Assembly: GCA_963749075.1 (NCBI GenBank)
Contig: CAVVLJ010000021.1
Coordinates: 672,001-736,000 of the forward strand
DNA length: 64,000 nt
Reading direction: 5' to 3'
Source of the DNA: an uncultured Pseudomonadota bacterium
Lineage (GTDB): Bacteria > Pseudomonadota > Alphaproteobacteria > JACZXZ01
The notes under the pieces are model-generated. The model made no database searches and was not told where the DNA came from. It was given only the letters and a program-made list of their open reading frames with translations. Made by a program: the position numbers and the translations under genes. Below are positions 1,560 through 57,750 of this stretch, in pieces (the first letter of the stretch is position 1; the number at the start of each line of letters is the position of its first letter).

Positions 1560-4500
1560 GGCGCTTCAAGCTCAGCCTCTTCGTCAAATACGCCGCCCTC
1601 ATCGTCGGCCTGGTGATCGCCGTGCTGGTGATCAACGGCGCAATCGATCTCTGGTTCACTTATCAGGACAAGAAGCAGGAGCTGGTCGACCTGCAGAAGG
1701 AGAAGGCCGAGGCGGCGGCCCAGCGCATCGAGGAGTTCGTCACCGAGATCGAGCAGCAGGTGGGCTGGACGACCTTCGCGCAGTGGGCGCTGACGCCGGT
1801 CGAGCAGCGCCGCTACGATTACGTGCGCCTCTTGCGCCAGGTGCCGGCGATCACCGAGCTCGTCGAGCTCGACGGCCAGGGCAAGGAGCAGCTCAAGGTC
1901 TCGCGCCTCGCCATGGACGTGGTCGCGAGCGGCGCCGACCACTCGCGCGACGCGAGCTTCACCGAGGCGGTCGCCAAGCGCGTCTATTTCGGCCCGGTCT
2001 ACTTCCGCAAGGAGTCCGAGCCCTACATGACGATGGCACTCGCCGGCAGCGGGCGCAATGCCGGCGTCACCGTGGCCGAGGTCAATCTCAAGCTCATCTG
2101 GGACGTGGTCACGGCGCTCAAGGTCGGCAGGGAGGGCTACGCCTATGTGGTCGATCGCCGCGGCCGGCTCATCGCACACCCGGACATCAGCCTCGTGCTG
2201 CGCGACACCGACCTTGGGTCCCTGCCCCAGGTCGCGGCCGCGCGCGCGGGTGCGGGCGACACCGTGGCACTCGCGCGGAACCTCGCGGGCCGCCAGGTCT
2301 TGAGTGCCAGTGCCGCGATCCCGGAGCTCGGCTGGCACGTCTTCGTCGAGCAGCCGCTCGCCGAGGCCTTCACCCCGCTTTACGCGGCGGCCCTCCGGGG
2401 TGCCGCCATCGTCTGCTTCGGCCTCCTCTTAGCAGGACTCGCCGGGCTCTACCTCTCGCGCCGCATGATCGGGCCGATCCGCACGCTCGAGGCGGGCGCA
2501 CGGCGCATCGGCGGCGGCGAGCTCGCGCACAAGATCGAGATCTCGACCGGCGATGAGCTCGAGGAGCTCGCCGGCCAGTTCAACCGCATGAGCGAGCAGC
2601 TCCAGGAATCCTACGCCGGCCTGGAGCGCAAGGTGGAGGAGCGGACCAGCGAGCTGCAGGAGTCCTTGGCGCAGCAGACGGCGACGGCGGACGTGCTCAA
2701 GGTGATCAGCCGCTCCACCTTCGACCTCGAGCGCGTTCTCGATACGCTCGTAGAAACCGCCGCACGGCTCTGCGCTGCGGACCGCGGCAGCGTCTTTCGG
2801 TTGGAGGGCGATGCTTTTCGGGTGGCGGGGTCCTATGGCCAATCACAGGAATTCATGAGGTTCCTCGAGGAAAATCCCCTCCGCCGGGACCGCGGATCGC
2901 TCGCCGGCAGAACAGTTCTGGAGGGCCGCTTGGTTCACATCGTCGATGTCCTGGCCGACCCCGAGTATATAGTGGCGAACTACGCGAAGCTTGGGGGTTT
3001 CCGGACGGGGCTTGGCGTACCGCTGGTGCGGGAAGGGGTGCCTTTTGGGGCGTTCGTGCTCGTCAGAAAAGAAGTGCGCGCCTTTACCGACAAGGAGATC
3101 GAGCTTATCGCCACCTTTGCCGACCAGGCGGTCATCGCGATCGAGAACGTGCGCCTCATCACCGAAACCCGCGAGGCGCTGGAGCGGCAGACCGCCACGG
3201 CCGAGGTGCTACAGGTCATCAACGCCTCGCCCGGCGACTTGGCGCCGGTCTTCGACGCGATGCTGGAGAAGGCGACGCGAATCTGCGAGGCGGGTTTCGG
3301 CACGCTTTATCTTCGCGAGGGCGAAGCGTTCCGCGCGGTCGCCATGCACGGCGTCTCACCGGCGTTCGCCGAGACCCGGCGTGGCCTCATCCAACCCGGC
3401 CCCAACACCGCCCTGGCACTCGTTGCCCAAACCAAGAGCACGGTTCATATGGAGGACATTCGCACGCAGCAGGCCTATGCGGAGCGCGATCCGATGGCCG
3501 TCGCCAGCGTCGAGCGCGGCGGATTCCGAACGCTCCTCGCTGTGCCGATGCTGAAGGAAAGCGAGCTGATCGGCGTATTTTCCATATACCGCCAAGAAGT
3601 GCGTCCCTTCACCAAGAATCAGATCACGTTGGTCACGACCTTCGCCGACCAGGCGGTCATCGCGATCGAGAACGTGCGCCTCATCACCGAAACCCGCGAG
3701 GCGCTGGAGCGGCAGACCGCCACGGCCGAGGTGCTACAGGTCATCAACGCCTCGCCCGGCGATCTGGCCCCGGTCTTCGAGGCGGTGCTGGAGAAGGCGC
3801 TGCGCCTCTGCGCGGCGTCGTTCGGACACGTCTTTCGCTATGACGGTACGTCCATGCGCCTTGCCGCGAGCCAGGGCATGCAGATCGAGGAGGCCGGCTA
3901 TTTCCGCGAATGGGTGCCCGACGCGGGCAGCGCCGTGGACGAGGTGGTGCGGGGTGCCGCCAAGGTTCACATCGTCGACGTGGTCGATACCGATGCCTAT
4001 CGCTCCGGCATCGTGTCCCGCGTGAAGCTCGTCGAGATTTTCCGCGCCCGCACCGCGCTGTGGGTTGCCTTGCGCAAGGACGAGGCGCTTCTCGGCGTCA
4101 TCGTCATCTACAGACGGGAAGTCCGCGCCTTTACCGACAAGCAGATCGCACTCCTCGAGACCTTCGCCGATCAGGCGGTGATCGCGATCGAGAACGTCCG
4201 CTTGCTCAACGAGCTGCGCGAGCGGAGCGCCGAGCTGGCGCGCTCGGTCGAGGAGCTCGAGACGCTGGGCGAGGTCGGCCAGGCGGTGAGCTCGACGCTC
4301 GATCTCGAGACCGTGCTGACGACGGTCGTGACCCGCGCGGTGGAGATCGCCGAGGCGGATTCCGGGGCGCTCTTCCGTTATAGCCGCGAGCGCCGCGAAT
4401 TCCGTCTCTACCGGGCCGTCGGCTTCGACGCGGCGCTCTTGGCCGAGGCCCGCGCCGTCCGCATCCCGCTCGAGCAGAGCACGCTCGGCCTCGCGGCAAC

Positions 4501-5481
4501 GCGCCGCGCGCCGGTCGAGACAACGTCCTTGGCCGACATGCCGGCGAACGCGATGCGCGATCTCCTGATCGGGGCGGGATTCCACTCGAGCGTGGTGGTG
4601 CCGCTCGTCTATGGCGAGCGCATCCTCGGCGGCTTCACGCTGCAACGCCGGACCGAGAAGCCGTTTCCCGCCAACGTGCTGAGCCTGCTGCTCACGCTCG
4701 CGAACCAATCGGCCATGGCCATCCAGAACGCGCGCCTCTTCCGCGAAATCCAGGAGCAGAGCCGCCAGCTCGAGCTCGCGAGCCAGCACAAATCGCAGTT
4801 CCTCGCCAACATGAGCCACGAGCTGCGCACGCCCCTGAACGCGATCCTCGGCTATACCGAGATGATGGCCGACGGGCTCTACGGCGAGCTCGGCGAGAAG
4901 GCGAAGGGCGTCCTGGAGCGCGTGCAGGCGAACGGCAGGCACCTCCTCGGCCTCATCAACGACGTGCTCGATCTCTCCAAGATCGAGGCCGGGCAGCTCA
5001 AGCTCAGCATCGACAATTACTCGCTGCCCGCCGTCGTGCAGCAGGTGCTGTCCGCGACCGAGTCGCTCGCGCGCAACAAGTCGCTTCAGCTGACCGCGAC
5101 CATCGCGGAGGCCATGCCCGCGGGACGCGGCGACGAGCGGCGGCTGACCCAGGTGCTGCTCAATCTCGTCGGGAACGCGATCAAGTTCACCGACAAAGGC
5201 TCGGTCACGATCCGCGCCTTGGCCGAGGGCGGGCGTTTCGAGATCGCGGTCGTCGACACCGGCCCGGGAATCAAGCCCGAGGACCGCGCGCGCATCTTCG
5301 AGGAGTTCCAGCAGGTCGACGACACCAACACGCGCAAGAAGGGCGGCACCGGGCTCGGCCTCGCCATCTCGCGGCGCATCGTCGAGATGCACGGCGGCCG
5401 CATCGAGGTGGACTCGGCCGTGGGACAGGGCTCCACCTTCCGTGTCATCATCCCCCAACGCGCCGAGGAGGTACTGGCCGC

Positions 5482-45810: not shown

Positions 45811-46122
45811 CGTCACCCCCGCGAAAGCGCTATGGGATGCACACATCTCGAGGAAGCTTGCAGAGCCATCGTGGGTCCTTCGAGACGCGCCCCTTCGGGG
45901 CGCTCCTCAGGATGAGGAAAATTTGTATGTGGCACAAAGACTTAACCTCATCCTGAGGAGCGAGCGCAGCGAGCGTCTCGAAGGACCCGCCGTAGCCGGT
46001 CCGAGGCTCCTTTTGCAAAGCGCAACACCATGATTTGCCGACGGTCTTCGGGCTTGTGTGCATCCCGTAGCGCGCAAGCGGGGGTCCGCGGCCGATGGAT
46101 TCCCGCTTTCGCGGGAATGACG
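45811..46122. mobile_element. Three-layer nested REP / MITE / palindromic element
   Basis: Outer REP (GTCACCCCCGCGAAAGCG...TTCCCGCTTTCGCGGGAATGAC) split by an element with TIRs at 45827-45845 and 46055-46073, which contains a CCTCAGGATGAG/CTCATCCTGAGG palindrome at 45871-45990. Confidence 0.75.
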
Positions 46123-46186
46123 ATGATGGCGGCAATGGCAATCGGGGTTATCCTCATTTAGCGGAGCGTCAGGCGGAAAGCGATCC

Positions 46187-47981
46187 ATGAGCATTCGCCG
46201 GCTGCCCTTGAACCTGGTCAACCAGATCGCCGCCGGCGAGGTGGTGGAGCGCCCGGCCGCGGCCTTGAAGGAGCTCATCGAGAACGCCCTCGACGCCGGG
46301 GCTAGCCGCATCGAGGCGGCGCTTCGCGAGGGCGGGCGCACGCTCATCGCGGTCGCGGACGACGGCTCAGGCATGACGGCGGACGAGCTCCTCCTCGCCG
46401 TCGAGCGCCACGCCACCTCGAAGCTCCCCGAGGACGATTTGACGCGCATCGCCACCTTGGGCTTCCGCGGCGAGGCGCTGCCCTCGATCGGCGCCGTCTC
46501 GCGCATGACGATTGCGAGCCGCGCGCGGGGTGCGTCCGACGCCTGGAGCCTCGCGGTCGAGGGCGGCGAGGTCGGCCGGCCGCAGCCGGCAGCGCAACCG
46601 ACGGGCACGCGCGTCGAGGTGCGCGACCTCTTCTACGCGACGCCGGCCAGGCTCAAATTCATGAAGTCCGAGCGCAGCGAGCTCTTGGCCGCCATCGACG
46701 TGGTGAACCGCCTCGCCATGGCGCATCCGGCGGTGGCCTTCGCGCTCTCCGACGGCGCCCGCGCCTCCGTCAAGCTGCAGGCGGCCCAAGGCGATCTCCT
46801 GGACGCGCGGCTCGGGCGGCTCGAAGCGGTGATGGGCCGCGAGTTCGCCGACAATGCGCTGCCAATCGCCGCCGAGCGCGAGGGCATCGGCCTCTCGGGC
46901 TATGCCGGCGTGCCGACGCTCAACCGTGCGACCGCGCAGCACCAGTACCTCTTCGTCAACGGCCGGCCGGTGCGCGACAAGCTCCTCTTCGGCGCCGTGC
47001 GCGGCGCCTACCAGGATTTCCTCGCGCGCGACCGCCACGCCATGCTCGCCCTCTTCCTCGAGCTCGCACCCGAGCTCGTCGACGTGAACGTGCATCCGAG
47101 CAAGGCCGAGGTGCGCTTCCGCGATGCCGGCCTGGTGCGCGGCCTCATCGTGAGTGCCTTGAAGCACGCGCTGGCGGCTGCCGGCCACCGCGCCTCGACC
47201 ACCGTGGCCCACGCCGCGCTCGGCGCCTTCCAGCCGGCGTCGTCACCGGCCTATGGCCGCGGCGCGGGCCACCTGCCGCGCGGCCTCGCCGAGGCGGCGG
47301 CGGCCTATTTCGCACCGGCCGCGGGCGAGGCGTTGCCGGGCCTGGCCGCGGCGCCCGAGGTGCGGCCGCTCGCGGCGGACGCTGGCGAGGACGAGACCGC
47401 CTATCCCTTGGGCGCCCCGCGGGCCCAGCTCCACGGCACCTACATCGTGGCCGAGACGGCCGACGGCATCGTCATCGTCGACCAGCACGCGGCCCACGAG
47501 CGCCTCGTCTACGAGCGCATGAAGCGGGCCCTCGAGGGGCGCGGCGTCGCCCGCCAGCTCCTCCTCATCCCCGAGGTCGTCGAGCTCGACGAGCCCGCGG
47601 CCGAGCGCCTCTCGCGCCGTGCTGCCGAGCTCGCCGAGCTCGGCCTCGTCCTCGAGCCCTTCGGCCCGGGTGCGGTCGTCGTGCGCGAGATGCCGGCGCT
47701 CTTGGGCGAGTGCGACATTGCGAGGCCTCGTGCGCGATCTCGCCGACGAGCTGGCCGAGCTCGGCCAGGCGCTCTCCTTGAAGGAGCGCCTCGAGGAGGT
47801 CTGCGGCACGCTCGCCTGCCACACGAGCGTGCGCGCCGGAAGGCGCTTGGGCCGCGCCGAGATGTCGGCGCTCCTGCGCGAGATGGAGGCCACCCCCCAC
47901 TCCGGCCAGTGCAACCACGGCCGCCCCACCTACGTCGAGCTCAAGCGCGCGGATATCGAGCGGTTGTTCGGGCGGCGCTAA
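46187..47981 (+). CDS. mutL: DNA mismatch repair protein MutL; frameshift near 47723
   Basis: [33 protein letters not shown]; C-terminal ACH..VRAG..CNHGRPT lies in the adjacent frame. Confidence 0.95.
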
Positions 47982-47982
47982 G

Positions 47983-48137
47983 TTCCCCTCTCCTCCTTCA
48001 GGAGGAGAGGGTCAGGGTGAGGAGGTCGCGCTGCAAGGCACGTTGTCGGCCGCAGAAGCGCGCAAGCACCCGGCCTCCTCACCTTCCCATCGCTTCGCGA
48101 TGGGCCCCTTCCTCTCCTCCTGAAGGAGGAGAGGGAA
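47983..48137. repeat. REP-like palindromic element (CCCTCTCCTCCTTCAGGAGGAGAGGG family), copy 1
   Basis: Terminal hairpins in inverted orientation; near-identical to 59914-60069; lies between convergent genes. Confidence 0.85.
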
Positions 48138-48140
48138 TGG

Positions 48141-48740
48141 TTAAGGGCTTGCTTCTGCCGCCTGCCAGCGCAGGAAGAGGAGGCGGGTGCGGCCGTAGTG
48201 GCGCTCGTCGAGTAGGGCGAAGCCCGCGGGGAGGGGAAAGGATTCGCGGCGGTCGAGCTCGACGACGGCGAGCGCTCCGGGCTTGAGCCAGCCGGCCGCG
48301 GCGAGGGCTTGAAGTGCCGCGGGTGCGAGGCCGCTCCTATAGGGCGGGTCGAGGAAGACGAGATCGCGCGGGCCCGGGCCGCCGCGCACCTTCTCGCGCA
48401 ACGGCGGGCGGCAGACGTTGGCCTGGAGGAGGGTGGCGTGCGCCTCCTCGCCGAGCGATTTCAAATTTCGCCGGGCGCATTCGAGCGCGCTCAGGTCGGA
48501 ATCGAGGAACACCACATGGGCAGCACCGTGGGAGAGCGCCTCGAGGCCGAGGGCGCCCGAGCCGGCGCAGGCGTCGAGCACCGCTGCCTCCTCGACGAGC
48601 GGGCCGTCCTCGGCGGCGATGCGGCCTTGGAGGAGGATGTTGAAGAGGCTCTCGCGCACGCGGTCCTGGGTCGGCCGCACCGATTCGTCCTCGGGCGCCG
48701 CGATGGTGCGGCCGCGGTGCCTACCCGCGGTGATGCGCAT
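48141..48740 (-). CDS. rsmD: 16S rRNA m2G966 methyltransferase
   Basis: [40 protein letters not shown]. Confidence 0.95.
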
Positions 48741-49507: not shown

Positions 49508-50221
49508 TCAGCCTGCCGCGGCGGCCACGAAGGCGGCGAGGATGCGCCCGTCGCCCGGGCTGATGAGGAACTCGGGATGCCACTGCACGCCCAAGCAGAA
49601 GCGGTAGCCGCGGTGCTCGATGCCCTCGATGATGCCGTCCTCGGCGAGCGCGTTGACGACGACGCCGGAGCCGACCTCCTTGGCCGCCTGGTGGTGGGCG
49701 GAATTGACGGCGAGCTCGTCCAAGCCGGTGATCTCGTGGAGGAGTGTCCCGCGCTCGACGCGCACGGTGTGGCCCGCCTCGGTGCGCGGGTTGGGCTGCT
49801 CGTGGGGGAGCGCTCCCTCGACCTCGTCCGGGATGTGCTGGATGAGGGTGCCGCCGAGGGCCACGTTCAAGAGCTGCTGGCCGCCGCAGATGCCGAGCAC
49901 CGGCATATTGCACCTGAGCGCCGCCTCGAGGATGGCGCGCTCGAAGGCCGTGCGGCCGTCCTTGGTCTTGACCGTGGGGTGGCGCGTCGTGGCGCCGAAG
50001 AGGGCGGGGTCCACGTCGAAGGCGCCGCCGGTGACGACGAGGCCGTCGAGCCGCTCGAGATAATCCTCCGCGCGCTCGGGCTCGTGGGGCAGCAAGACCG
50101 GCAGCCCGCCCGCCGCAACGATGGTCTCGGCATAGTTCTGGCGCAGCGCATACCACGGCAGCTTGGAATAGCCGCCCGGCGGCTCCGCATCGAGGGTGAG
50201 GCCGATGGCAGGGCGAGTCAT
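49508..50221 (-). CDS. Gamma-glutamyl-GABA hydrolase family (peptidase C26)
   Basis: LVVTGG, LGICGGQQ, VNSAHHQ, GVQWHPE. Confidence 0.92.
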   Translation of the reverse strand: MTRPAIGLTLDAEPPGGYSKLPWYALRQNYAETIVAAGGLPVLLPHEPERAEDYLERLDGLVVTGGAFDVDPALFGATTRHPTVKTKDGRTAFERAILEAALRCNMPVLGICGGQQLLNVALGGTLIQHIPDEVEGALPHEQPNPRTEAGHTVRVERGTLLHEITGLDELAVNSAHHQAAKEVGSGVVVNALAEDGIIEGIEHRGYRFCLGVQWHPEFLISPGDGRILAAFVAAAAG

Positions 50222-50402
50222 GGCGGGGAATGTAGGGCGGTTCGGGGGGAAGGGCAATGCGGGGGGGCCTGTGTGTTGTGCCAAGGACGGACATGTACGC
50301 ATCCGTGCCGAGTCACGATCAGCGACTGGAAACGAAACCGGTCGTTGGCCTCGCAAAGCGACTAGAGCCGCCGCCGCGCAGGAGCCCTGACGTGCCCACG
50401 GA

Positions 50403-52862
50403 TCACGGCTTGGCTAGAAGATTGAGGTTTAGCGCACCGCAACCGCATCGCAAGCCTTCCTTCTTCTCCCCTTGTTCGGGAACGACATAGAACATTTCTT
50501 GGCATGTGGAGCAGGTGAACGCCCCGGTGAAGCCTTTGAAGGCGGCCACCACTGGTTCGAAATCCGGCTTCTGTAGGTTCGCCCATGCGTTGAAATGGAC
50601 AGCTGTGTTTATCTGCCATTGCTCATGACCAGTCTTTGTCTTGGCGTCCGCAAAAGCCGCGTCGCGAGTCGCAATCGAACCGACGGCGTCCTTCTGGCCC
50701 CAAGAGTTCGCTGCGGCCTTTGCCCTCTTGAAGAGCTCGCCGAGCGCACGCGTTGCGCTGGGGAGAAGGTCGCCGAGGGTAAACTGGGCATCACCACGAA
50801 ACTCGACGTTGGCACGGAGGCGATCGCAGGTTTCCTTCGCGAAGTGTTCAAGATAGTGTCGTAGGAGGGCGGCTGCTGCGCGAATGTCATTCTTAGCGAG
50901 ATGGGCGTCCAATTCGGCCCAGACATCATGATCATTCCATTCGGTTGGCCCCATGTCGACGTTCCACGTCCTGAAGTGGGCGAAGCTGCGTCCCTTGATC
51001 AAGCCCTCCGACCTCATGTGCTTGAGCCAAATCTCGTCGTGGGTCGTGAAGATGAACTGCGTGCTCGGAAAGTGCTCCTTGAGAAGTGTGCAAACCTGCC
51101 GCCGATGTCCGGTGTCGACCGACATCAGCACGTCGTCCAAGACTGCAAGGGTGAAATTGTCTCCGAGCAGATAGCGCATCAGTGCCAGGTATAGACACAG
51201 ACCCATTCCATCTTGGTGTCCTTCGCTATGGTAGGCACCCGGCGGGAAGTGCCCGCGACCGTAAAAATCCACATCGAACCCCAGCTTGCCGATGGATGGC
51301 ATCAGCCTGGCTGTGAACGTGCTCTCGTCCTCATGGTTCATCTCGCGGTAAAATTCCGAGAAGGTCGCTTCGACATCCTTGTAGATGCCTTCAAGAGCCT
51401 TTGTGGTAACCTGAGCGTATAGATCGAAGACCTTTGATGCGCGTTCGGCGCGCAACTTGCCGATGGCGACCTTCTGCCTGGCCCTACGGTATTGCTCGAG
51501 CCGCTCCTGAGCTACCACCAGAAATTCGCGTGCGGCGTCTTGCTTGGTCGGCTCTGGAATTGCGGCGACGCCGGCCGCCAGCGCCGTGATCGTCGTCGCG
51601 AGATCAGGTGCCTGGTGCGCCGCAAGCAACACGGCGCGAGTATCGTCGAGTGGCAACAGTTTTTGCAGTTGCGCGTAGCGGCCGGCCAGAATGGCCTTGA
51701 AGTCATTTAAGGCGGTGACCTCGACGGGCGGATTGAGCTGAGCGCCGTAGCCGATGACCGTTGCCAGCGCGCTTCCAACCGCATGAATAACATCCATCAA
51801 CGGACCGATCTGTGCTTCCAAGGCTCTTCGTTTTACGGTCACGGCCTCGAAGTGTTTCAGTTTTTCTGCTACGTGCTGTCGGAAAGCATCCGGTTCAAAA
51901 GGCGTGTCGCAGACCGGACAGACCTTGTCATCATAGAAATCGAGCGCGGACCGGAGCAATGCTTCGCGGGATACGGCGTCGAGGCTGTCAGCGTCCTTTG
52001 TGAGTTCGGCCGCTGCGGATGCAGCCGCGACGCATGTCTCTTTAAACGCTTCAGACCGCAGCTTCTCAAGGGCGTCCTTTAGCGTCGTCAAATCGCCCGT
52101 TGCTTGGACCTTTGGAACGCGAGCGGGTGCTGCGCCGGTGGAAGCGGTTGCCAAACCGTCCTTCACGGAGGTTGTCGCATCGAGCACTGTAAAAGCGGGT
52201 AGGCCCAAAAGCTCGCGCTTGGGGTTGACGGCCCCAAGGACGCTGGATTTGGACAATTGGGCGACACCGAGCGCGGCCAGGAGATGTGAAATGGCATCCA
52301 TTTCCGTGCGCTCCAGCGGCGGAAGCTCGCGGGCGCACGCATTAGAAATCTTTTGCAGGACCGTTCGCAGTTTTTCGATATCGTCAAGCCGTAGGAGAGC
52401 CTGCACCTCTTTAGAGCGTTGGCCTGGTTCGGACAGGACGTAACGGATCAACTCACGCCGGGACAAGACGAACTCGGGATGAAGCTTCACATTGTCGAAC
52501 GCGGCCTGGACGTCAACATCATTCGGCGTGATTGTCGGAACGCCCGCTGCTTTGACGGTCCGGTGAATGGTCGCCCTTTTTCCGCCCAGCGACGGGATGA
52601 CGACATCAAGAGTGACGAAGGATCGATCGGGCTTGTTCCGGCTGTCGACGTGCGGACCGTGTGCTTTTACCGAAAGTCCGCCCGTGCCGCTTCCGGACAG
52701 GCGAGAAATGCTCCCAGTCAGCCCAAACTCAATGGCGTCGACGATGCCGCTTTTGCCGGTTCCGTTCGGACCGCATGCGGCAAAGTTCTGGTCTTTGGTA
52801 TCCAGCGTGAGGTCGCGAATACCGCGAAACTCATGTATCCGCAGCTTCTCGATCCGGATCAT
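50403..52862 (-). CDS. Rad50/RloC-like ABC ATPase with zinc hook, HEPN-like C-terminal region and terminal Cys cluster
   Basis: Walker A GPNGTGKS; coiled coil with central CPVC; signature HSEGH; Walker B LAVLDD; FTTHD; tail LLRHYLE...INTAVH, then CSTC...CGC. Confidence 0.85.
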   Translation of the reverse strand: MIRIEKLRIHEFRGIRDLTLDTKDQNFAACGPNGTGKSGIVDAIEFGLTGSISRLSGSGTGGLSVKAHGPHVDSRNKPDRSFVTLDVVIPSLGGKRATIHRTVKAAGVPTITPNDVDVQAAFDNVKLHPEFVLSRRELIRYVLSEPGQRSKEVQALLRLDDIEKLRTVLQKISNACARELPPLERTEMDAISHLLAALGVAQLSKSSVLGAVNPKRELLGLPAFTVLDATTSVKDGLATASTGAAPARVPKVQATGDLTTLKDALEKLRSEAFKETCVAAASAAAELTKDADSLDAVSREALLRSALDFYDDKVCPVCDTPFEPDAFRQHVAEKLKHFEAVTVKRRALEAQIGPLMDVIHAVGSALATVIGYGAQLNPPVEVTALNDFKAILAGRYAQLQKLLPLDDTRAVLLAAHQAPDLATTITALAAGVAAIPEPTKQDAAREFLVVAQERLEQYRRARQKVAIGKLRAERASKVFDLYAQVTTKALEGIYKDVEATFSEFYREMNHEDESTFTARLMPSIGKLGFDVDFYGRGHFPPGAYHSEGHQDGMGLCLYLALMRYLLGDNFTLAVLDDVLMSVDTGHRRQVCTLLKEHFPSTQFIFTTHDEIWLKHMRSEGLIKGRSFAHFRTWNVDMGPTEWNDHDVWAELDAHLAKNDIRAAAALLRHYLEHFAKETCDRLRANVEFRGDAQFTLGDLLPSATRALGELFKRAKAAANSWGQKDAVGSIATRDAAFADAKTKTGHEQWQINTAVHFNAWANLQKPDFEPVVAAFKGFTGAFTCSTCQEMFYVVPEQGEKKEGLRCGCGALNLNLLAKP

Positions 52863-53068
52863 GCCGCGTCCGGAAATAATGCGGCCCGAATTGCCGGCTC
52901 AGCGAAGACGCCATCATCTAGGACCACCTCCCGTAACTTCGGGGCGATGTCTGCAAGCCCTTCCGTTTTCGCGAGCTCGTCGAAGAATTTGGAGAGCACA
53001 GCATGGGCAACGGTTGTCACCGGAGCGGAGCTTTCTTCGGATTCTGATGTCGGCTCGTTTTCCGTCAT
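52859..53068 (-). CDS. Small acidic hypothetical protein coupled to the ATPase
   Basis: AGGAGG RBS, 69 aa, ATGA overlap with the ATPase start. Confidence 0.8.
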   Translation of the reverse strand: MTENEPTSESEESSAPVTTVAHAVLSKFFDELAKTEGLADIAPKLREVVLDDGVFAEPAIRAALFPDAA

Positions 53069-53424
53069 GGCTTTCCTCCTACATGTATTATAAGTTGCGT
53101 GGAGTTGTTCGTCACGCGCGTATTTGGGGAACTACTGGAGCGGGAACCGGCAAGACGGAATTTGTGCGCATCGGCCGCAACAAAGATGGCGCGGTCCGGC
53201 AGGAATCCGGTCTGGCCGATAACCGGTGCGAATACGTCTCGTCGCGCCGCACGCAACAGCACTTTTTGGGCCGGGGACAGCAATGGTCGCTCCTGGCGAC
53301 TTACGGAGGGGCGTGATCGCGGAACGGGGTCCAGAGGGGGTTCGAGCCGGATCAGATCACGACGTTCGGCATCGTGAATTGCTACGTCAGCTAAGTGCCG
53401 ATAGACGCGTCCAAGGAGAAAACA

Positions 53425-53916
53425 ATGATTGAGGTATGTCATAATCTCTTTGTTGGCTCACAGGATGATGAGGTCAGCATTCGTGGCCAAACCGGCTGGT
53501 TCGTTGTTCACGCCTGCAAAGAGCCTTATCACCGGGAAGCGTTGGGTTACAGAGGTCAAGGTGCGCCGAAAGCTCATCCCGAATATCTCGTCGCCCGGCG
53601 CAAAGGTTGCGTGATTCTCAATCTTATCGACGCCGATGATGTCAAATTCATTCCGCCAGAATTAATCGATGCCGCGTTAAGCGACATTCATCAGAACATC
53701 GCATCAAGCAAGGTTCTGGTTCACTGCAACCAAGGCATGTCTCGATCACCGACGATTGCCTTTTTGTATTTGTTGAGATTCTCCGATTTGTTTGATGGGC
53801 AAGATCACCAAAAAGGTTTGCAGAACTTCAAAAGGCTCTATCCGGTCTATGTTCCGAAGCAGGGCATGGCCGATTATGTCAAACTAAACTGGCTCAGATA
53901 TGCGTCTAGAGAATAA
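53425..53916 (+). CDS. Dual-specificity phosphatase (CX5R) family protein
   Basis: AAGGAG RBS; NLFVGS; active-site loop VLVHCNQGMSRS. Confidence 0.9.
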   Translation: MIEVCHNLFVGSQDDEVSIRGQTGWFVVHACKEPYHREALGYRGQGAPKAHPEYLVARRKGCVILNLIDADDVKFIPPELIDAALSDIHQNIASSKVLVHCNQGMSRSPTIAFLYLLRFSDLFDGQDHQKGLQNFKRLYPVYVPKQGMADYVKLNWLRYASRE

Positions 53917-53926
53917 GTGCAGACCC

Positions 53927-54490
53927 TCACCCCGTACGACCGAATTGATAATCCACGCCCGTCATCCGAATTCGCCACTTCAGCATGTCAAGGCTAACGC
54001 CAAAGTGTTGGGCCGCCGTCGAATCAGTCATGCGATTGGCGCGCATCCAGAGCAAGGCAGGCCTGGGCAGTAACATTGTGCCACCAAGCCAATCCGCCTC
54101 TGCCTCCTGCGCTTCGTCGTAATTGCCATTGAGGAAATGGCCATCTGCTGTCCGGCCGGCCGTGGCTAATTCGTGGCCTAGCATGATGTGAGACAGCTCG
54201 TGCATGAGCACGCTGTTAATTCGAGCCGCGGCCAGCTTTGGATTGTAGACCACGAGATAGTGGTCGTCCTCGCGCAGGACGAATGCCGACCATTCGTCGC
54301 TGGCCACTTTGAGTAGATGGTTGCGGTCTTTATCCGGCCAGCCCGGAATTTCGGATGCCGACCAAATGGTGACCCCGAGGTGCACACCTAGACGCCTCGC
54401 GTCTAGTCGCGCGGCCAACTCGATGCCAAGTGTCTTTCTAATCTCCAGCGAGCGGCGTTCACACTGCGCTTTGAACCCGCGCCGAAGCAA
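53927..54490 (-). CDS. ImmA/IrrE-family metallopeptidase (CapP-like)
   Basis: HELSH zinc motif, QEAEADWLGGTMLLPR, C-terminal HTH (AQHFGVS). Confidence 0.9.
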   Translation of the reverse strand: MLRRGFKAQCERRSLEIRKTLGIELAARLDARRLGVHLGVTIWSASEIPGWPDKDRNHLLKVASDEWSAFVLREDDHYLVVYNPKLAAARINSVLMHELSHIMLGHELATAGRTADGHFLNGNYDEAQEAEADWLGGTMLLPRPALLWMRANRMTDSTAAQHFGVSLDMLKWRIRMTGVDYQFGRTG

Positions 54491-54492
54491 TC

Positions 54493-54852
54493 TCAGTGCC
54501 CTTCTGACCCGATCTTCTCGACAAATTTTTTGTGTGCCGCAATGATAAGACTCGCGAGGGACTTCGCCGTCTGGGCGCTGAAAGTACGGCCTTGCTTGAA
54601 GCCGATTTGAACCGCAGGCATTGACGGCGCCTTTACACCGTGGCTACCCGCTCCACCGATTACCAGCGCGGGGTCAATGTTCAGCCACGCGCAAACTTTG
54701 CCCAGCGTTCGACTGTCCGGAAGATGTCCGCGCTCGATTCGAGATAGGGTCGCGGGGCTAGTGCCAATTTCGTGCGCCGCCGCTCTGATGCCCATGCTCC
54801 CGCGCTTCTGGGCCACTTTTTGTCCCAATGCTTCAGGGGAAAGTTGTGCCAT
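54493..54852 (-). CDS. XRE-family HTH repressor (CapH/ImmR-like)
   Basis: IRAAAHEIGTSPATLSRIERGHLPD HTH; directly upstream of the IrrE gene. Confidence 0.9.
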   Translation of the reverse strand: MAQLSPEALGQKVAQKRGSMGIRAAAHEIGTSPATLSRIERGHLPDSRTLGKVCAWLNIDPALVIGGAGSHGVKAPSMPAVQIGFKQGRTFSAQTAKSLASLIIAAHKKFVEKIGSEGH

Positions 54853-54862
54853 GCCGTCTCCT

Positions 54863-54928
54863 GTCTCAGATTGGAAAAAACAGTTTCAATTGTGATACAA
54901 ATGCGCTAGTATGTCTTAAAGCTGAAAC
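54863..54928. promoter_or_regulatory. Three imperfect palindromic boxes (consensus GTYTCA-N4-TGAAAC) in the divergent promoter region
   Basis: GTCTCA-gatt-GGAAAA at 54863, GTTTCA-attg-TGATAC at 54883, GTCTTA-aagc-TGAAAC at 54913. Confidence 0.65.
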
Positions 54929-54997
54929 AGCCACATCGAATCACGGCGATTCGTGGCCGTCAAGCGGAAGTTGGCTCATTGAGAGGATCACGAGGCA

Positions 54998-55423
54998 ATG
55001 GCTGCTAAATCCTATGCCCTGACTTTCAAGGGGTACTACCTAGAGTCCGGTATTGGCGGGCTTCCGGCCGAGTCGGGAATCTATTGCGTGTATGCTTGCA
55101 CCTATGACGCAGCAAAAGATACGGTCAGTCTCCGCCGGCTGATTTACATCGGAGAATCCGATGACGTGCAAGACCGGGTGAAGAACCACGAGAAGTGGTC
55201 CGTTTGGCGCAGAGAGCTGAGGTCGGGCGAGGAACTTTGCTTCAGCTGCGCGCTCATCTCCGGGGAAGACGATCGGCAGCGCGCCGAGGCAGCGGAGATT
55301 TTCGAGCATAAGCCGCCCTGTAATACCGAATATAAACATGAGTTTCCGTTCGATCGAACTACGATCACGAATAGCGGCAAGGCTGCGCTGCTTCACAGCC
55401 ACTTCACGGTTGAGCGGACTTAA
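54998..55423 (+). CDS. Stand-alone GIY-YIG nuclease
   Basis: LPAESGIYCVY ... LIYIGES..VQDRVKNH ... AEAAEI ... PPCN: full GIY/YIG/R/E/N pattern. Confidence 0.88.
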   Translation: MAAKSYALTFKGYYLESGIGGLPAESGIYCVYACTYDAAKDTVSLRRLIYIGESDDVQDRVKNHEKWSVWRRELRSGEELCFSCALISGEDDRQRAEAAEIFEHKPPCNTEYKHEFPFDRTTITNSGKAALLHSHFTVERT

Positions 55424-55489
55424 GCCTGCGCGGCGATGTCCTAGACTGCGTGTGTGCGTTGTCGACGGTTGTAACCAGGAGGTGAGAAG

Positions 55490-55807
55490 ATGTCCGAGAG
55501 TGATACTCATAAGCGGGCGAAATCTCGTGCGGCCGGCGCTGGGGGTCAGACGGAGGTGCCGTTGACGGGTGGCCGCCGGCTGGACGCGTTGTCGGATGCC
55601 GGGCGCGCGACAGAGGTCGAGCGGAGCGGCAACATGAACAGTCTCAAGGCGGCTGCCCGGCGTCTTCGGGATGCACCCGGGAATCAGAGGGTGTTGCAGG
55701 TGCCTCAGCAAGACATGGACAAAGCTGCTGCGGCGATGAGGCAGATTGAAGTCGCCGGAACCGTGAAAAATTTGATCGGGACGAAGCGCCGCAGCATTCG
55801 GCCTTAA
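55490..55807 (+). CDS. Small basic hypothetical protein, possibly a minimal PD-(D/E)xK nuclease fold
   Basis: AGGAGG RBS; H..AK..., TEVPLTGGRRLDA, ATEVERSG spacing resembles E...(P)D...ExE. Confidence 0.65.
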   Translation: MSESDTHKRAKSRAAGAGGQTEVPLTGGRRLDALSDAGRATEVERSGNMNSLKAAARRLRDAPGNQRVLQVPQQDMDKAAAAMRQIEVAGTVKNLIGTKRRSIRP

Positions 55808-56118
55808 TTGCAATCGCCGAGCATGCGTCGGAGGCCTGTCGCTGCTGGAGAGGTTCCCTTTTTGCGGCTGAAAGCGCTGAACTTGCCGATCTCCGGGATT
55901 GGGATGATACTGCTTCGGGCCCGATGGCCCGCTGCGGATCATTGCCGCCCACCGACCCCATGAAACCGATATCCGGAGCCGTTACTCGAGTCATACGGCT
56001 ATAGTGCCAGCCACCAGCCTTGTTCGTTCACCTGCGTCGCGGCATGCCGCCCGCCCTCGCGCCCACCCACCCCCTCCCCGCTTGACGGCCCACCCCCTCT
56101 CCCGCCAACCTTCCCCCC

Positions 56119-56604
56119 ATGCCGCCGCGCAAGCTCTCCTACATGGCGACCGCCCTCGCCCGGGCCGAGGCCGCCGCCGCGCGCGGCGAGGTGCCGGTGG
56201 CGGCGCTCATCGTCGACGGCCGCGGCGAGATCGTGGCGGCGGCGGAGAACCGCATGCGCGAGGCGGGCGATCCCACGGCGCACGCCGAGATGCTCGCCAT
56301 CCGCGAGGCCTGCGCGCGGCTCGGCGAGGGGCGGCTCGGGGCGTGCGACATCTACGTCACCCTCGAGCCTTGCGCCATGTGCGCGGCTGCCATCTCGTTA
56401 GCGCGGCTACGCCGGCTCTACTTCGCGGCCTATGATGCCAAGGGCGGCGGCGTCGAGCATGGCGCGCGCGTCTTCGCGCAAGTGACCTGCCACCACCGGC
56501 CCGAGGTCTATGGCGGCATCGACGAGCGGCGCGCGGCGGCCCTTATGGCGCGTTTCTTCGCCGCGCTCCGCGCCGCCGCGGGCGGCACGCAAGAGGAAGG
56601 ATGA
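56119..56604 (+). CDS. tadA: tRNA-specific adenosine deaminase
   Basis: GEVPVAA, DPTAHAE, YVTLEPCAMC. Confidence 0.93.
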   Translation: MPPRKLSYMATALARAEAAAARGEVPVAALIVDGRGEIVAAAENRMREAGDPTAHAEMLAIREACARLGEGRLGACDIYVTLEPCAMCAAAISLARLRRLYFAAYDAKGGGVEHGARVFAQVTCHHRPEVYGGIDERRAAALMARFFAALRAAAGGTQEEG

Positions 56605-57500: not shown

Positions 57501-57540
57501 CGGCTGTCGCGCTGCGCGAGGGTGCCTCGGACTGAGCGCG

Positions 57541-57750
57541 GTGGGTCCTTCGAGACGCTCGCTCCCGCTCGCTCCTCAGGATGAGATAAAGTCTTTCTGC
57601 CACACACAATTTTTCCTCGTCCTGAGGAGCGCCCCGCGGGGCGTAGGCCCGCTCTCTTGCGTCACGCAAGAGAGGCGCGCTTAGCGCGCCGGGGGCGCGT
57701 CTCGAAGGACCACGGTGGCACTGCAAGCCTCCTCGATATCTGTGCATCTA
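57541..57750. repeat. Inverted copy of the 45834-45990 element, with an extra ~50-bp double hairpin inserted
   Basis: Matches the reverse complement of 45834-45990 including the spacer; insertion contains CTCTCTTGCG-TCA-CGCAAGAGAG and GGCGCGC-TTA-GCGCGCC. Confidence 0.8.

Follow-up and report, generated by a model that had tools for sequence, protein, structure and literature searches.

A low-GC island of defence-like genes with an obligate pair of a small helical protein and a zinc-hook ATPase in an alphaproteobacterial genome

Within the window, the whole stretch of 64,000 nucleotides analysed here, a low-GC island carries a zinc-hook ATPase gene and a small gene upstream of it. The two form an obligate pair, a widespread module so far without a name, and the ATPase family extends over many bacterial phyla and the haloarchaea. 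The island as a whole is best explained, with a probability of about 0.75, as the product of accretion: a defence island at a recurrent insertion site that combines three independently travelling pieces. Piece A would be the pair, a two-gene RloC/Lamassu-like module; piece B, a CapH/CapP- or ImmR/ImmA-type switch placed over a unit of a GIY-YIG protein and a 105-aa protein (p105); and piece C, a phosphatase gene that would have arrived separately.

An insert between two divergent genes

The seven open reading frames of the initial annotation are all present at 50403..55807 (Table 1), and their defence-like character was borne out. They are contiguous, without remnants between them. Gene orientation yields the four transcription units that had been described, as predicted units. 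The lower GC content reported for the region was found by each measure: 0.49 to 0.62 in the island versus 0.65 to 0.76 in the flanks (500-nt windows), 0.476 to 0.629 per island gene, differing from gene to gene, and a GC3 of 0.52 to 0.70 for the island genes versus 0.87 to 0.94 for tadA, rlu, and mutL.

Table 1. Features of the island and of its flanks (positions in the window)
Feature	Position	Strand	Remarks
GATase gene, left flank	49508-50221	-	divergent from tadA-like gene
Low-GC insert	50261..56080		ends approximate; between promoter-like motifs that are conserved at the divergent GATase and tadA-like genes
819-aa Rad50/SbcC-like ABC ATPase	50403-52862	-	Walker A, Walker B, zinc hook, C-terminal helical domain
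69-aa helical partner protein	52859-53068	-	stop codon overlaps ATPase start
163-aa dual-specificity (VH1/DUSP-like) phosphatase	53425-53916	+	intact C-x5-R loop (C101, R107)
187-aa ImmA/IrrE-family (PF06114) metallopeptidase	53927-54490	-	HExxH at 97-101, no GAF domain
119-aa XRE-family HTH, putative repressor	54493-54852	-	homologous to plasmid switch HTH genes
Intergenic region between divergent genes, presumed site of operator and promoters	54853-54997		imperfect inverted repeats
141-aa stand-alone GIY-YIG nuclease-like protein	54998-55423	+	Pfam below cut-off (E 0.036); plasmid homologues annotated GIY-YIG
105-aa minimal PD-(D/E)xK/REase-fold protein, unnamed family	55490-55807	+	predicted fold, invariant residues
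tadA-like gene, right flank	56119-56604	+	divergent from GATase gene

Insertion between core genes, as had been proposed, was confirmed by comparison with relatives. The site is empty in 4/5 genomes of the same genus, with a gap of approximately 110 to 140 bp between the GATase and tadA-like genes, and the fifth congener (G002) carries a different insert, a Fic gene, at the same place. The two flanking genes lie at most 1.5 kb apart in 8/10 genomes of the family. An assembly chimera was ruled out, as single contigs of run X1 bridge the left junction (50194-52195) and the right junction (54557-56160); run X1 probably derives from the source sample, which limits the bridging to a check of the assembly, and no one piece covers the whole island. 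No tRNA was found at the junctions, and no terminal repeats, attachment sites, or target duplication were evident at the island ends. A promoter scan was uninformative, with 3 sites versus 2.0 ± 1.3 expected by chance. As had been claimed, none of the seven island proteins matched an integrase, RM, or cyclase family.

The ATPase and its upstream partner

The ATPase has a CxxC zinc hook (C315/C318), the signature variant SEGH, and a histidine at H608. Its C-terminal helical domain contains R668-x3-E672 and N752-x3-H756 and is followed by a four-cysteine zinc ribbon (784/787/806/808). The hook was kept in 81/81 ATPase homologues, and R668, E672, N752, and H756 were likewise invariant in 81/81; among 150 distant representatives, they were present in 149, 150, 149, and 150, respectively. 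The tail forms a five-helix domain in the predicted structure. HEPN domains were taken as all-helical with E-x3-[KR] and R-x4-6-H, or as the PrrC/RloC variant; the tail has R-x3-E and N-x3-H of the RloC type and no R-x4-6-H. The RloC-like motif behind the HEPN label of the initial annotation is thus present, and the label stands on this motif by itself. A profile of the tail gave nothing significant against PDB, Pfam, or RloC-like tails, and hhalign against RloC-like tails returned a probability of 5.4%, the R-x3-E helix alone being aligned. No HEPN family of Pfam appeared among the matches listed (25/57 families; 60 members); the structure searches used the whole ATPase model, and their match lists were filled by the ATPase part. 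The tail alone is matched by 660 clusters at 50% identity, which makes this a large family. We consider the tail a probable RNase.

The initial annotation had identified the genes correctly and missed the role of the 69-aa gene as obligate partner of the ATPase. A partner gene encoding approximately 65 aa (ORFs of 55 to 80 aa) lies directly upstream of the ATPase gene in 86/87 loci, haloarchaea included (85 detected by HMM and one annotated archaeal ORF; the single miss is at a contig edge), and in 7/7 further ATPase loci. The partner comes first and overlaps the ATPase gene by 4 nt in 76/84 called ORFs. Apart from the pair, no gene family within 5 kb recurs in more than 6/80 loci (the best 80 of 364 hits). 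The partner family has a mean column identity of 31% and a median net charge of -4. The protein had no meaningful match in PDB, Pfam, or the atlas and no match in PADLOC. Partner and ATPase distances are correlated (Mantel rho of 0.66, 59 pairs), a correlation due to linkage and not to a co-evolving interface.

We modelled the complex of the two proteins and obtained a score of 0.65, versus 0.00 for the best of 3 controls; of the solved pairs, 116/157 attained this mark, as did 2/215 of the mismatched ones. The runs shared at least 91% of contacts, with a partner pLDDT of at least 70. The contacts involve ATPase residues 157-172 and 471-493, and the partner is accordingly predicted to bind the head-proximal coiled coil, i.e., the Mre11/SbcD site, occupied on Rad50 by the Mre11 helix-loop-helix, although the pass may stem from resemblance to solved Mre11-Rad50 structures. 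The arrangement recalls Mre11-Rad50/SbcCD, as far as that system is covered by the relevant part of PMC7752040, in its zinc-hook ATPase and in a helical, acidic element whose gene lies immediately upstream and which is predicted to bind the coiled coil near the head. It differs in that a 55- to 80-aa ORF alone stands upstream, without a nuclease subunit, and in that the ATPase carries an extra tail of approximately 175 aa. No sequence similarity was detected between the partner and Mre11/SbcD.

In another reading, the pair serves DNA repair or the maintenance of mobile elements as a clamp that binds DNA ends in the manner of SbcC, and its tail would be structural or DNA binding instead of an RNase. 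We regard this as unlikely. Catalysis is favoured by the invariance of four polar residues (R, E, N, and H) on a helical domain, and the pair lacks an Mre11/SbcD nuclease. Its distribution is patchy, at 1/400 other genomes of the phylum sample (a single-sequence ATPase scan of genome contigs was empty or nearly so), and copies of the pair are found inside BREX and adjoining RM, CBASS, and Abi genes; one archaeal pair sits between pglX and pglZ of BREX-5.

The analogy to RloC drawn in the initial annotation held. In the parts of the literature that describe it (PMC2610378; Pfam AAA_13), the anticodon nuclease RloC is similarly a Rad50-like ABC ATPase of approximately 800 aa with a coiled coil and a CxxC zinc hook. 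Both have a C-terminal R-x3-E...H triad pattern and, in the portion of the record covering RloC loci, a rare association with RM loci. However, the E-to-H spacing is 83 residues in the island ATPase versus 36 to 52 in RloC, whose triad is given as R-X3-E-X36-52-H in that section of PMC2610378. The island ATPase also has an extra helical hairpin and the zinc ribbon, and the obligate upstream partner of island-type loci (86/87) was found in 0/27 AAA_13 loci. AAA_13 was not listed for the island ATPase at E<=1, and none was found in G000 at 1e-30. With Lamassu LmuABC, the pair shares a small partner gene preceding an SMC/SbcC-like ATPase gene; the sections of PMC12663957 dealing with this system propose that long LmuC derives from the SbcD C-terminal domain and sits at the LmuB heads. 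Here, in contrast, there is no LmuA gene, the putative effector is fused to the ATPase C terminus, and the partner, of approximately 65 aa, had no LmuC match in PADLOC. PADLOC LmuB matches to the ATPase were partial (best E of 6.5e-17, residues 259-618). DndD/CxC-DndE was rejected on the basis of the relevant part of PMC10853773, as the hook is CxxC here and the partner has an all-helical fold in place of RHH; HEC/PDC candidates, as far as their published descriptions extend, matched at the Walker-A level only.

We lean slightly toward the following chain of events for piece A. The zinc-hooked ATPase dimer would detect DNA ends or intermediates of phage replication, and head movement would be coupled or restrained by the partner. 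ATP turnover would release the R-E-H tail, which would act as an RNase, probably on tRNA, and lead to abortive infection. The pair might instead be toxin-antitoxin-like, with a small, acidic, fast-evolving protein locking the ATPase-RNase off and with its loss or its displacement by a phage protein, not DNA ends, triggering killing. The position and overlap of the partner gene, its low column identity, and its negative charge agree with such a lock. However, the model places the interface at the coiled coil, not at the tail, and, as in the DNA-end-sensing RloC, the zinc hook is invariant; the lock is quite unlikely. The trigger is the sole difference between it and the chain proposed for piece A.

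The switch, the small nuclease-like proteins, and the phosphatase

The divergent layout of the HTH and peptidase genes was confirmed by gene orientations, and we class the two from their sequences as a candidate CapH/CapP- or ImmR/ImmA-type switch. The HTH protein is 41 to 42% identical to those of four plasmid HTH+M78 switches, and the plasmid matches inspected (4 of 18 records) were in 4/4 cases HTH+M78 pairs that diverge from an operon of ubiquitin-like or CBASS-like type; CapH/CapP is likewise resembled in that the nearest homologues of the island switch flank such operons. The M78 model covers peptidase residues 75-174, and PADLOC capP covers 41-120 of 242 positions. A search for M78 in 300 genomes of the class was empty or nearly so. 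The inverted repeats of the intergenic region are imperfect, of 7 to 8 nt only, and may be chance occurrences.

As in the parts of the literature on CapH/CapP and ImmR/ImmA that describe gene layout, the HTH and HExxH peptidase genes precede a putative defence unit and point away from it. The island peptidase has 187 aa and no GAF domain, versus 288 aa for E. coli CapP in its published description, where the architecture is peptidase-HTH-GAF with a groove that binds ssDNA; the GAF domain is required for ssDNA sensing by CapP, according to the relevant sections of bioRxiv 10.1101/2022.04.27.489752 and 10.64898/2026.05.16.725639. Induction by DNA damage is therefore an analogy here. A GIY-YIG plus minimal REase-fold cargo is also absent from the cargo section of the CapH/CapP literature.

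The GIY-YIG label was supported by the annotation of plasmid homologues and weakened by the sub-threshold Pfam score. For p105, the predicted structure suggests an REase-like fold, in keeping with its PD-(D/E)xK-like label. Residues H7, D32, E42, and E44 are invariant in 52/52 homologues, and in the D...(D/E)xK motif (D32, E42-x-E44), the K position holds E. An E in place of K is a variant of BamHI-type enzymes. Members of the p105 family are overrepresented near M78 peptidases and defence operons: PF06114 peptidases occur in 12/80 p105 loci (458 kb of flank) versus 1/87 ATPase loci (1,413 kb). A strict peptidase motif, too insensitive for this comparison (2/80 versus 2/87 loci), was replaced by a loose motif and Pfam; an iterated M78 HMM gave 13 to 15/80 p105 loci, having been trained on both sets and leaning toward the p105 set. 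Searches for p105 in plasmids and viral contigs and for GIY-YIG in viral contigs were empty or nearly so, and outside the island no locus sampled, the 3 read for GIY-YIG included, combined GIY-YIG with p105 or an M78 switch.

We think it rather probable that the HTH protein represses the divergent GIY-YIG-p105 unit until the peptidase cleaves it under stress. The signal might be DNA damage, but not via the GAF groove of CapP, and the two small nuclease-like proteins would act as effectors or accessories made on induction. The phosphatase gene has the lowest GC content in the island (0.476), and a search in 10 relatives was empty or nearly so. The enzyme likely removes phosphate from a protein or from a nucleic acid end; no link to other island genes, and no sign that it serves piece A or B, was found in the island or the sampled loci.

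One system or several, and what the pair may be

The modules did not co-occur in the HMM matrix. The phosphatase was found in 0/87 ATPase and 0/80 p105 loci; GIY-YIG in 0/87 ATPase, 0/80 p105, and 0/26 phosphatase loci; p105 in 0/87 ATPase and 0/26 phosphatase loci; and the partner and ATPase tail in 0/80 p105 and 0/26 phosphatase loci. A GIY-YIG motif pattern that matches the island's own protein found none in the 87 ATPase or 80 p105 loci. The samples are uneven, so that a rare joint form could be missed: 364 ATPase hits, of which the best 80 were kept; 268 p105 hits, likewise cut to the best 80, many on short contigs (more than 700 bp upstream in 58/80); phosphatase loci from viral contigs only (26/29 counted, the weak L252-L254 being dropped); and the 3 GIY-YIG loci. 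The seven-gene system of the initial annotation was rejected on this zero co-occurrence; of the co-occurrence it had expected, the ATPase pair, phosphatase, and GIY-YIG were never found together, and the enrichment of p105 beside M78 peptidases stood. One integrated DNA damage system, in which DNA ends made by the induced nucleases would trigger the ATPase effector, with the response tuned by the phosphatase, is thus very unlikely, as its modules never met in the sampled loci, the switch lies 1.8 kb from the pair without facing it, and GC varies by gene, even though the seven genes are contiguous and DNA breaks activate RloC in the account given in part of PMC3458546.

No full PADLOC match was obtained, as had been anticipated, and none of PADLOC, Pfam, and NCBIfam has a model of the ATPase pair family, which current defence catalogues therefore miss. 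As a tentative and somewhat doubtful joint reading, the pair would be an undescribed anti-phage family, an evolutionary intermediate from SbcCD to Lamassu/RloC, and p105 a new minimal nuclease of HTH/M78 switches. If so, a Rad50-like DNA-end sensor would have lost its Mre11 nuclease, kept the Rad50-binding helices as a free regulatory subunit of approximately 65 aa, and gained a fused divergent HEPN-type RNase and a zinc ribbon; p105 would be a recurring first-induced gene of switches preceding CBASS, Thoeris, and Shedu operons. The link between p105 and M78 peptidases points to an overlooked accessory gene in inducible defence operons. The island also indicates that a compact, integrase-free block of defence genes is not necessarily one system. 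Should the partner prove to be a Rad50-binding domain that became detached, the pair would offer a two-gene test of how a repair clamp is converted into an immune sensor and would show the role of such a subunit when it has no nuclease to carry.

Insertion site and modularity of the island

All seven ORFs have the positions given in the initial annotation and, judged from orientation, form four units. Their GC content does drop from about 0.70 to 0.49-0.62, the phosphatase gene being the lowest. In 4 of 5 same-genus genomes the GATase and tadA-like genes that flank the island are direct neighbours, and in the fifth, G002, a different low-GC gene, coding for a 404-aa Fic/DOC protein, fills the gap. 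The insertion point has thus been used at least twice, indicating that this short divergent-promoter gap repeatedly acquires foreign genes with no integrase nearby; as previously noted, no island protein matches an integrase family. Both core genes have retained their promoter-like motifs, which bounds the insert, and contigs of sequencing run X1, probably the source sample, bridge both junctions. We found neither a tRNA nor a clear terminal repeat at the junction, and no paralogues of any of the seven genes elsewhere in the genome.

Coordinates of the features
Feature	Sequence	Position	Strand
Repeat-like sequence	window	near 45900-46150	
mutL	window	46187-48286	
mutL, C-terminal part	window	47619-47981	
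GATase	window	49508-50221	-
Insert bounds	window	about 50261-56080	
Island	window	50403-55807	
ATPase	window	50403-52862	-
69-aa partner	window	52859-53068	-
tadA-like	window	56119-56604	+
Short repeat	window	57520-57720	
Fic/DOC gene	L220 (G002:C202)	3325-4539	
Two-gene module in BREX-5	L023	7805-10469	
Leptospira-titled locus	L028	72368-94818	
105-aa gene locus	L143	6082-9030	
105-aa gene locus	L180	445-3913	

Elsewhere in the window, mutL is seemingly frameshifted near 47600, its C-terminal part lying in a separate frame, which may be an assembly error. The short repeat, of very high depth and with many loose ends in runs X1-X3, is probably a REP-like element, and a similar sequence was seen by eye near 45900-46150.

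The initial annotation proposed one seven-gene system. Co-occurrence was scored by six-frame HMM searches of 87 ATPase loci (80 from genome contigs, the best of 364 matches there, and 7 of 24 plasmid records), the best 80 of 268 metagenome loci of the 105-aa protein, 26 of 29 viral phosphatase loci, 4 of 18 plasmid records with the peptidase and 3 GIY-YIG loci. In these best-match samples the phosphatase was absent from all 87 ATPase and 80 105-aa loci, and GIY-YIG from both sets and from the 26 phosphatase loci. The 105-aa protein was found in 0/87 ATPase and 0/26 phosphatase loci, and the ATPase tail with its partner in 0/80 105-aa and 0/26 phosphatase loci. Cross-module co-occurrence was zero and the sampled loci lend the proposal no support, although the sets are unequally sampled and metagenome contigs are often short, so that a rare joint form could escape. 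The island is real, but judged by these samples it is not one system.

The ATPase and its small partner

The ATPase gene is preceded by a 55- to 80-aa ORF whose end meets the ATPase start; of the 84 such ORFs called, 76 overlap it by 4 nt. A profile HMM trained on 63 of these proteins detected the partner in 85 of the 87 ATPase loci (best 80 of 364 plus 7 plasmid); this is circular for the training proteins, and the independent evidence is positional. Of the two misses, one is a contig edge and the other a haloarchaeal locus in which a 68-aa ORF is annotated at the partner position. The partner was also present in 7/7 further loci, with ATPase identity down to 24%. The pair is obligate, and among the best 80 of 364 loci every other neighbour family is confined to 6 or fewer.

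The ATPase family is sizeable: 2626 of 8000 scored candidates pass E<=1e-20, and the tail alone accounts for 660 50%-clusters. Its distribution is patchy, with 1 of 400 other genomes of a phylum sample carrying it. We scanned 142 of 150 nearest neighbours, most of which had no Pfam match at 1e-8. An uncontrolled manual count assigned about 17 of them to defence (type III RM helicases, methylases, BrxL, SIR2, Ymh, KAP NTPase) and about 17 to mobility. On a plasmid of the archaeon Halorhabdus (L023), pglX and pglZ of a BREX-5 system flank the two-gene module. On a contig titled Leptospira interrogans (L028), the pair is 68% identical to alphaproteobacterial copies, reflecting either recent transfer or a contaminant contig. 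The ATPase was not recovered as an intact ORF in L080, L082, L096 and L042, and the L080 partner is broken too, which would fit a costly gene being gained and lost.

Searches of Pfam, PADLOC, NCBIfam and PDB yielded no family for the partner. The score of the modelled complex was 0.65 and that of the best of 3 controls 0.00; among solved complexes 116 of 157 reach the 0.65 mark, among mismatched pairs 2 of 215, counts that apply only roughly with our own alignments. Model runs agreed on at least 91% of contacts, with a partner pLDDT of at least 70. The predicted interface comprises ATPase residues 157-172 and 471-493, on both coiled-coil strands adjoining the head; it is hydrophobic and varies less than the distal coil (top-residue frequency 0.60 vs 0.44), and the near-invariant F28 of the partner lies at its centre. 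It may be that the model passed through likeness to solved Mre11-Rad50 structures; no sequence similarity of the partner to Mre11/SbcD was detected. Given the head-proximal position of the modelled interface, where the Mre11 helix-loop-helix grips Rad50, the partner is most readily interpreted as a free-standing Rad50-binding domain.

The phosphatase and the 105-aa gene

The DUSP-like phosphatase, with an intact C-x5-R loop, comes from a family with 1266 or more members, and no link to other island genes was found in the sampled loci. Its occurrence in 26 viral contigs (L226-L251) suggests that phages also use this family.

In L143 and L180, the 105-aa REase-fold gene is flanked by an HTH/M78 switch on one side and a CBASS operon on the other, a position held by DUF2188 in two plasmid loci (L107, L108). 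Adjoining the 105-aa gene in 6 of the best 80 of 268 loci is a 92-aa Cys/His-containing protein with no Pfam match, directly downstream in five (L125, L162, L165, L166, L183) and upstream in L128; L162, L165 and L166 are near-identical.

Novelty and proposed functions

As the initial annotation anticipated, PADLOC-DB 2.0 returned no full match. Literature searches brought up no description of the pair in the consulted passages of PMC2610378, PMC3710099, PMC12839542, PMC10853773, PMC12663957, PMC7752040, PMC3458546, 10.1101/2024.01.29.577857, 10.1101/2022.04.27.489752 or 10.64898/2026.05.16.725639. It may already be catalogued computationally, Krishnan et al. 2020, who classified ABC ATPases, being the likeliest source. 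The present analysis adds a prediction of where the partner binds, evidence for a hotspot and a link of the 105-aa family to M78 peptidases.

The insertion, the modular make-up, the obligate pairing and the invariant residues are direct observations, and the folds and the partner's binding site come from models. By analogy with Lamassu and with RloC (PMC3458546), the ATPase pair would sense DNA ends and cleave RNA. The HTH/peptidase module would act by repression followed by proteolytic release, as in CapH/CapP and ImmR/ImmA. The two modules may react to DNA damage side by side, neither depending on the other.
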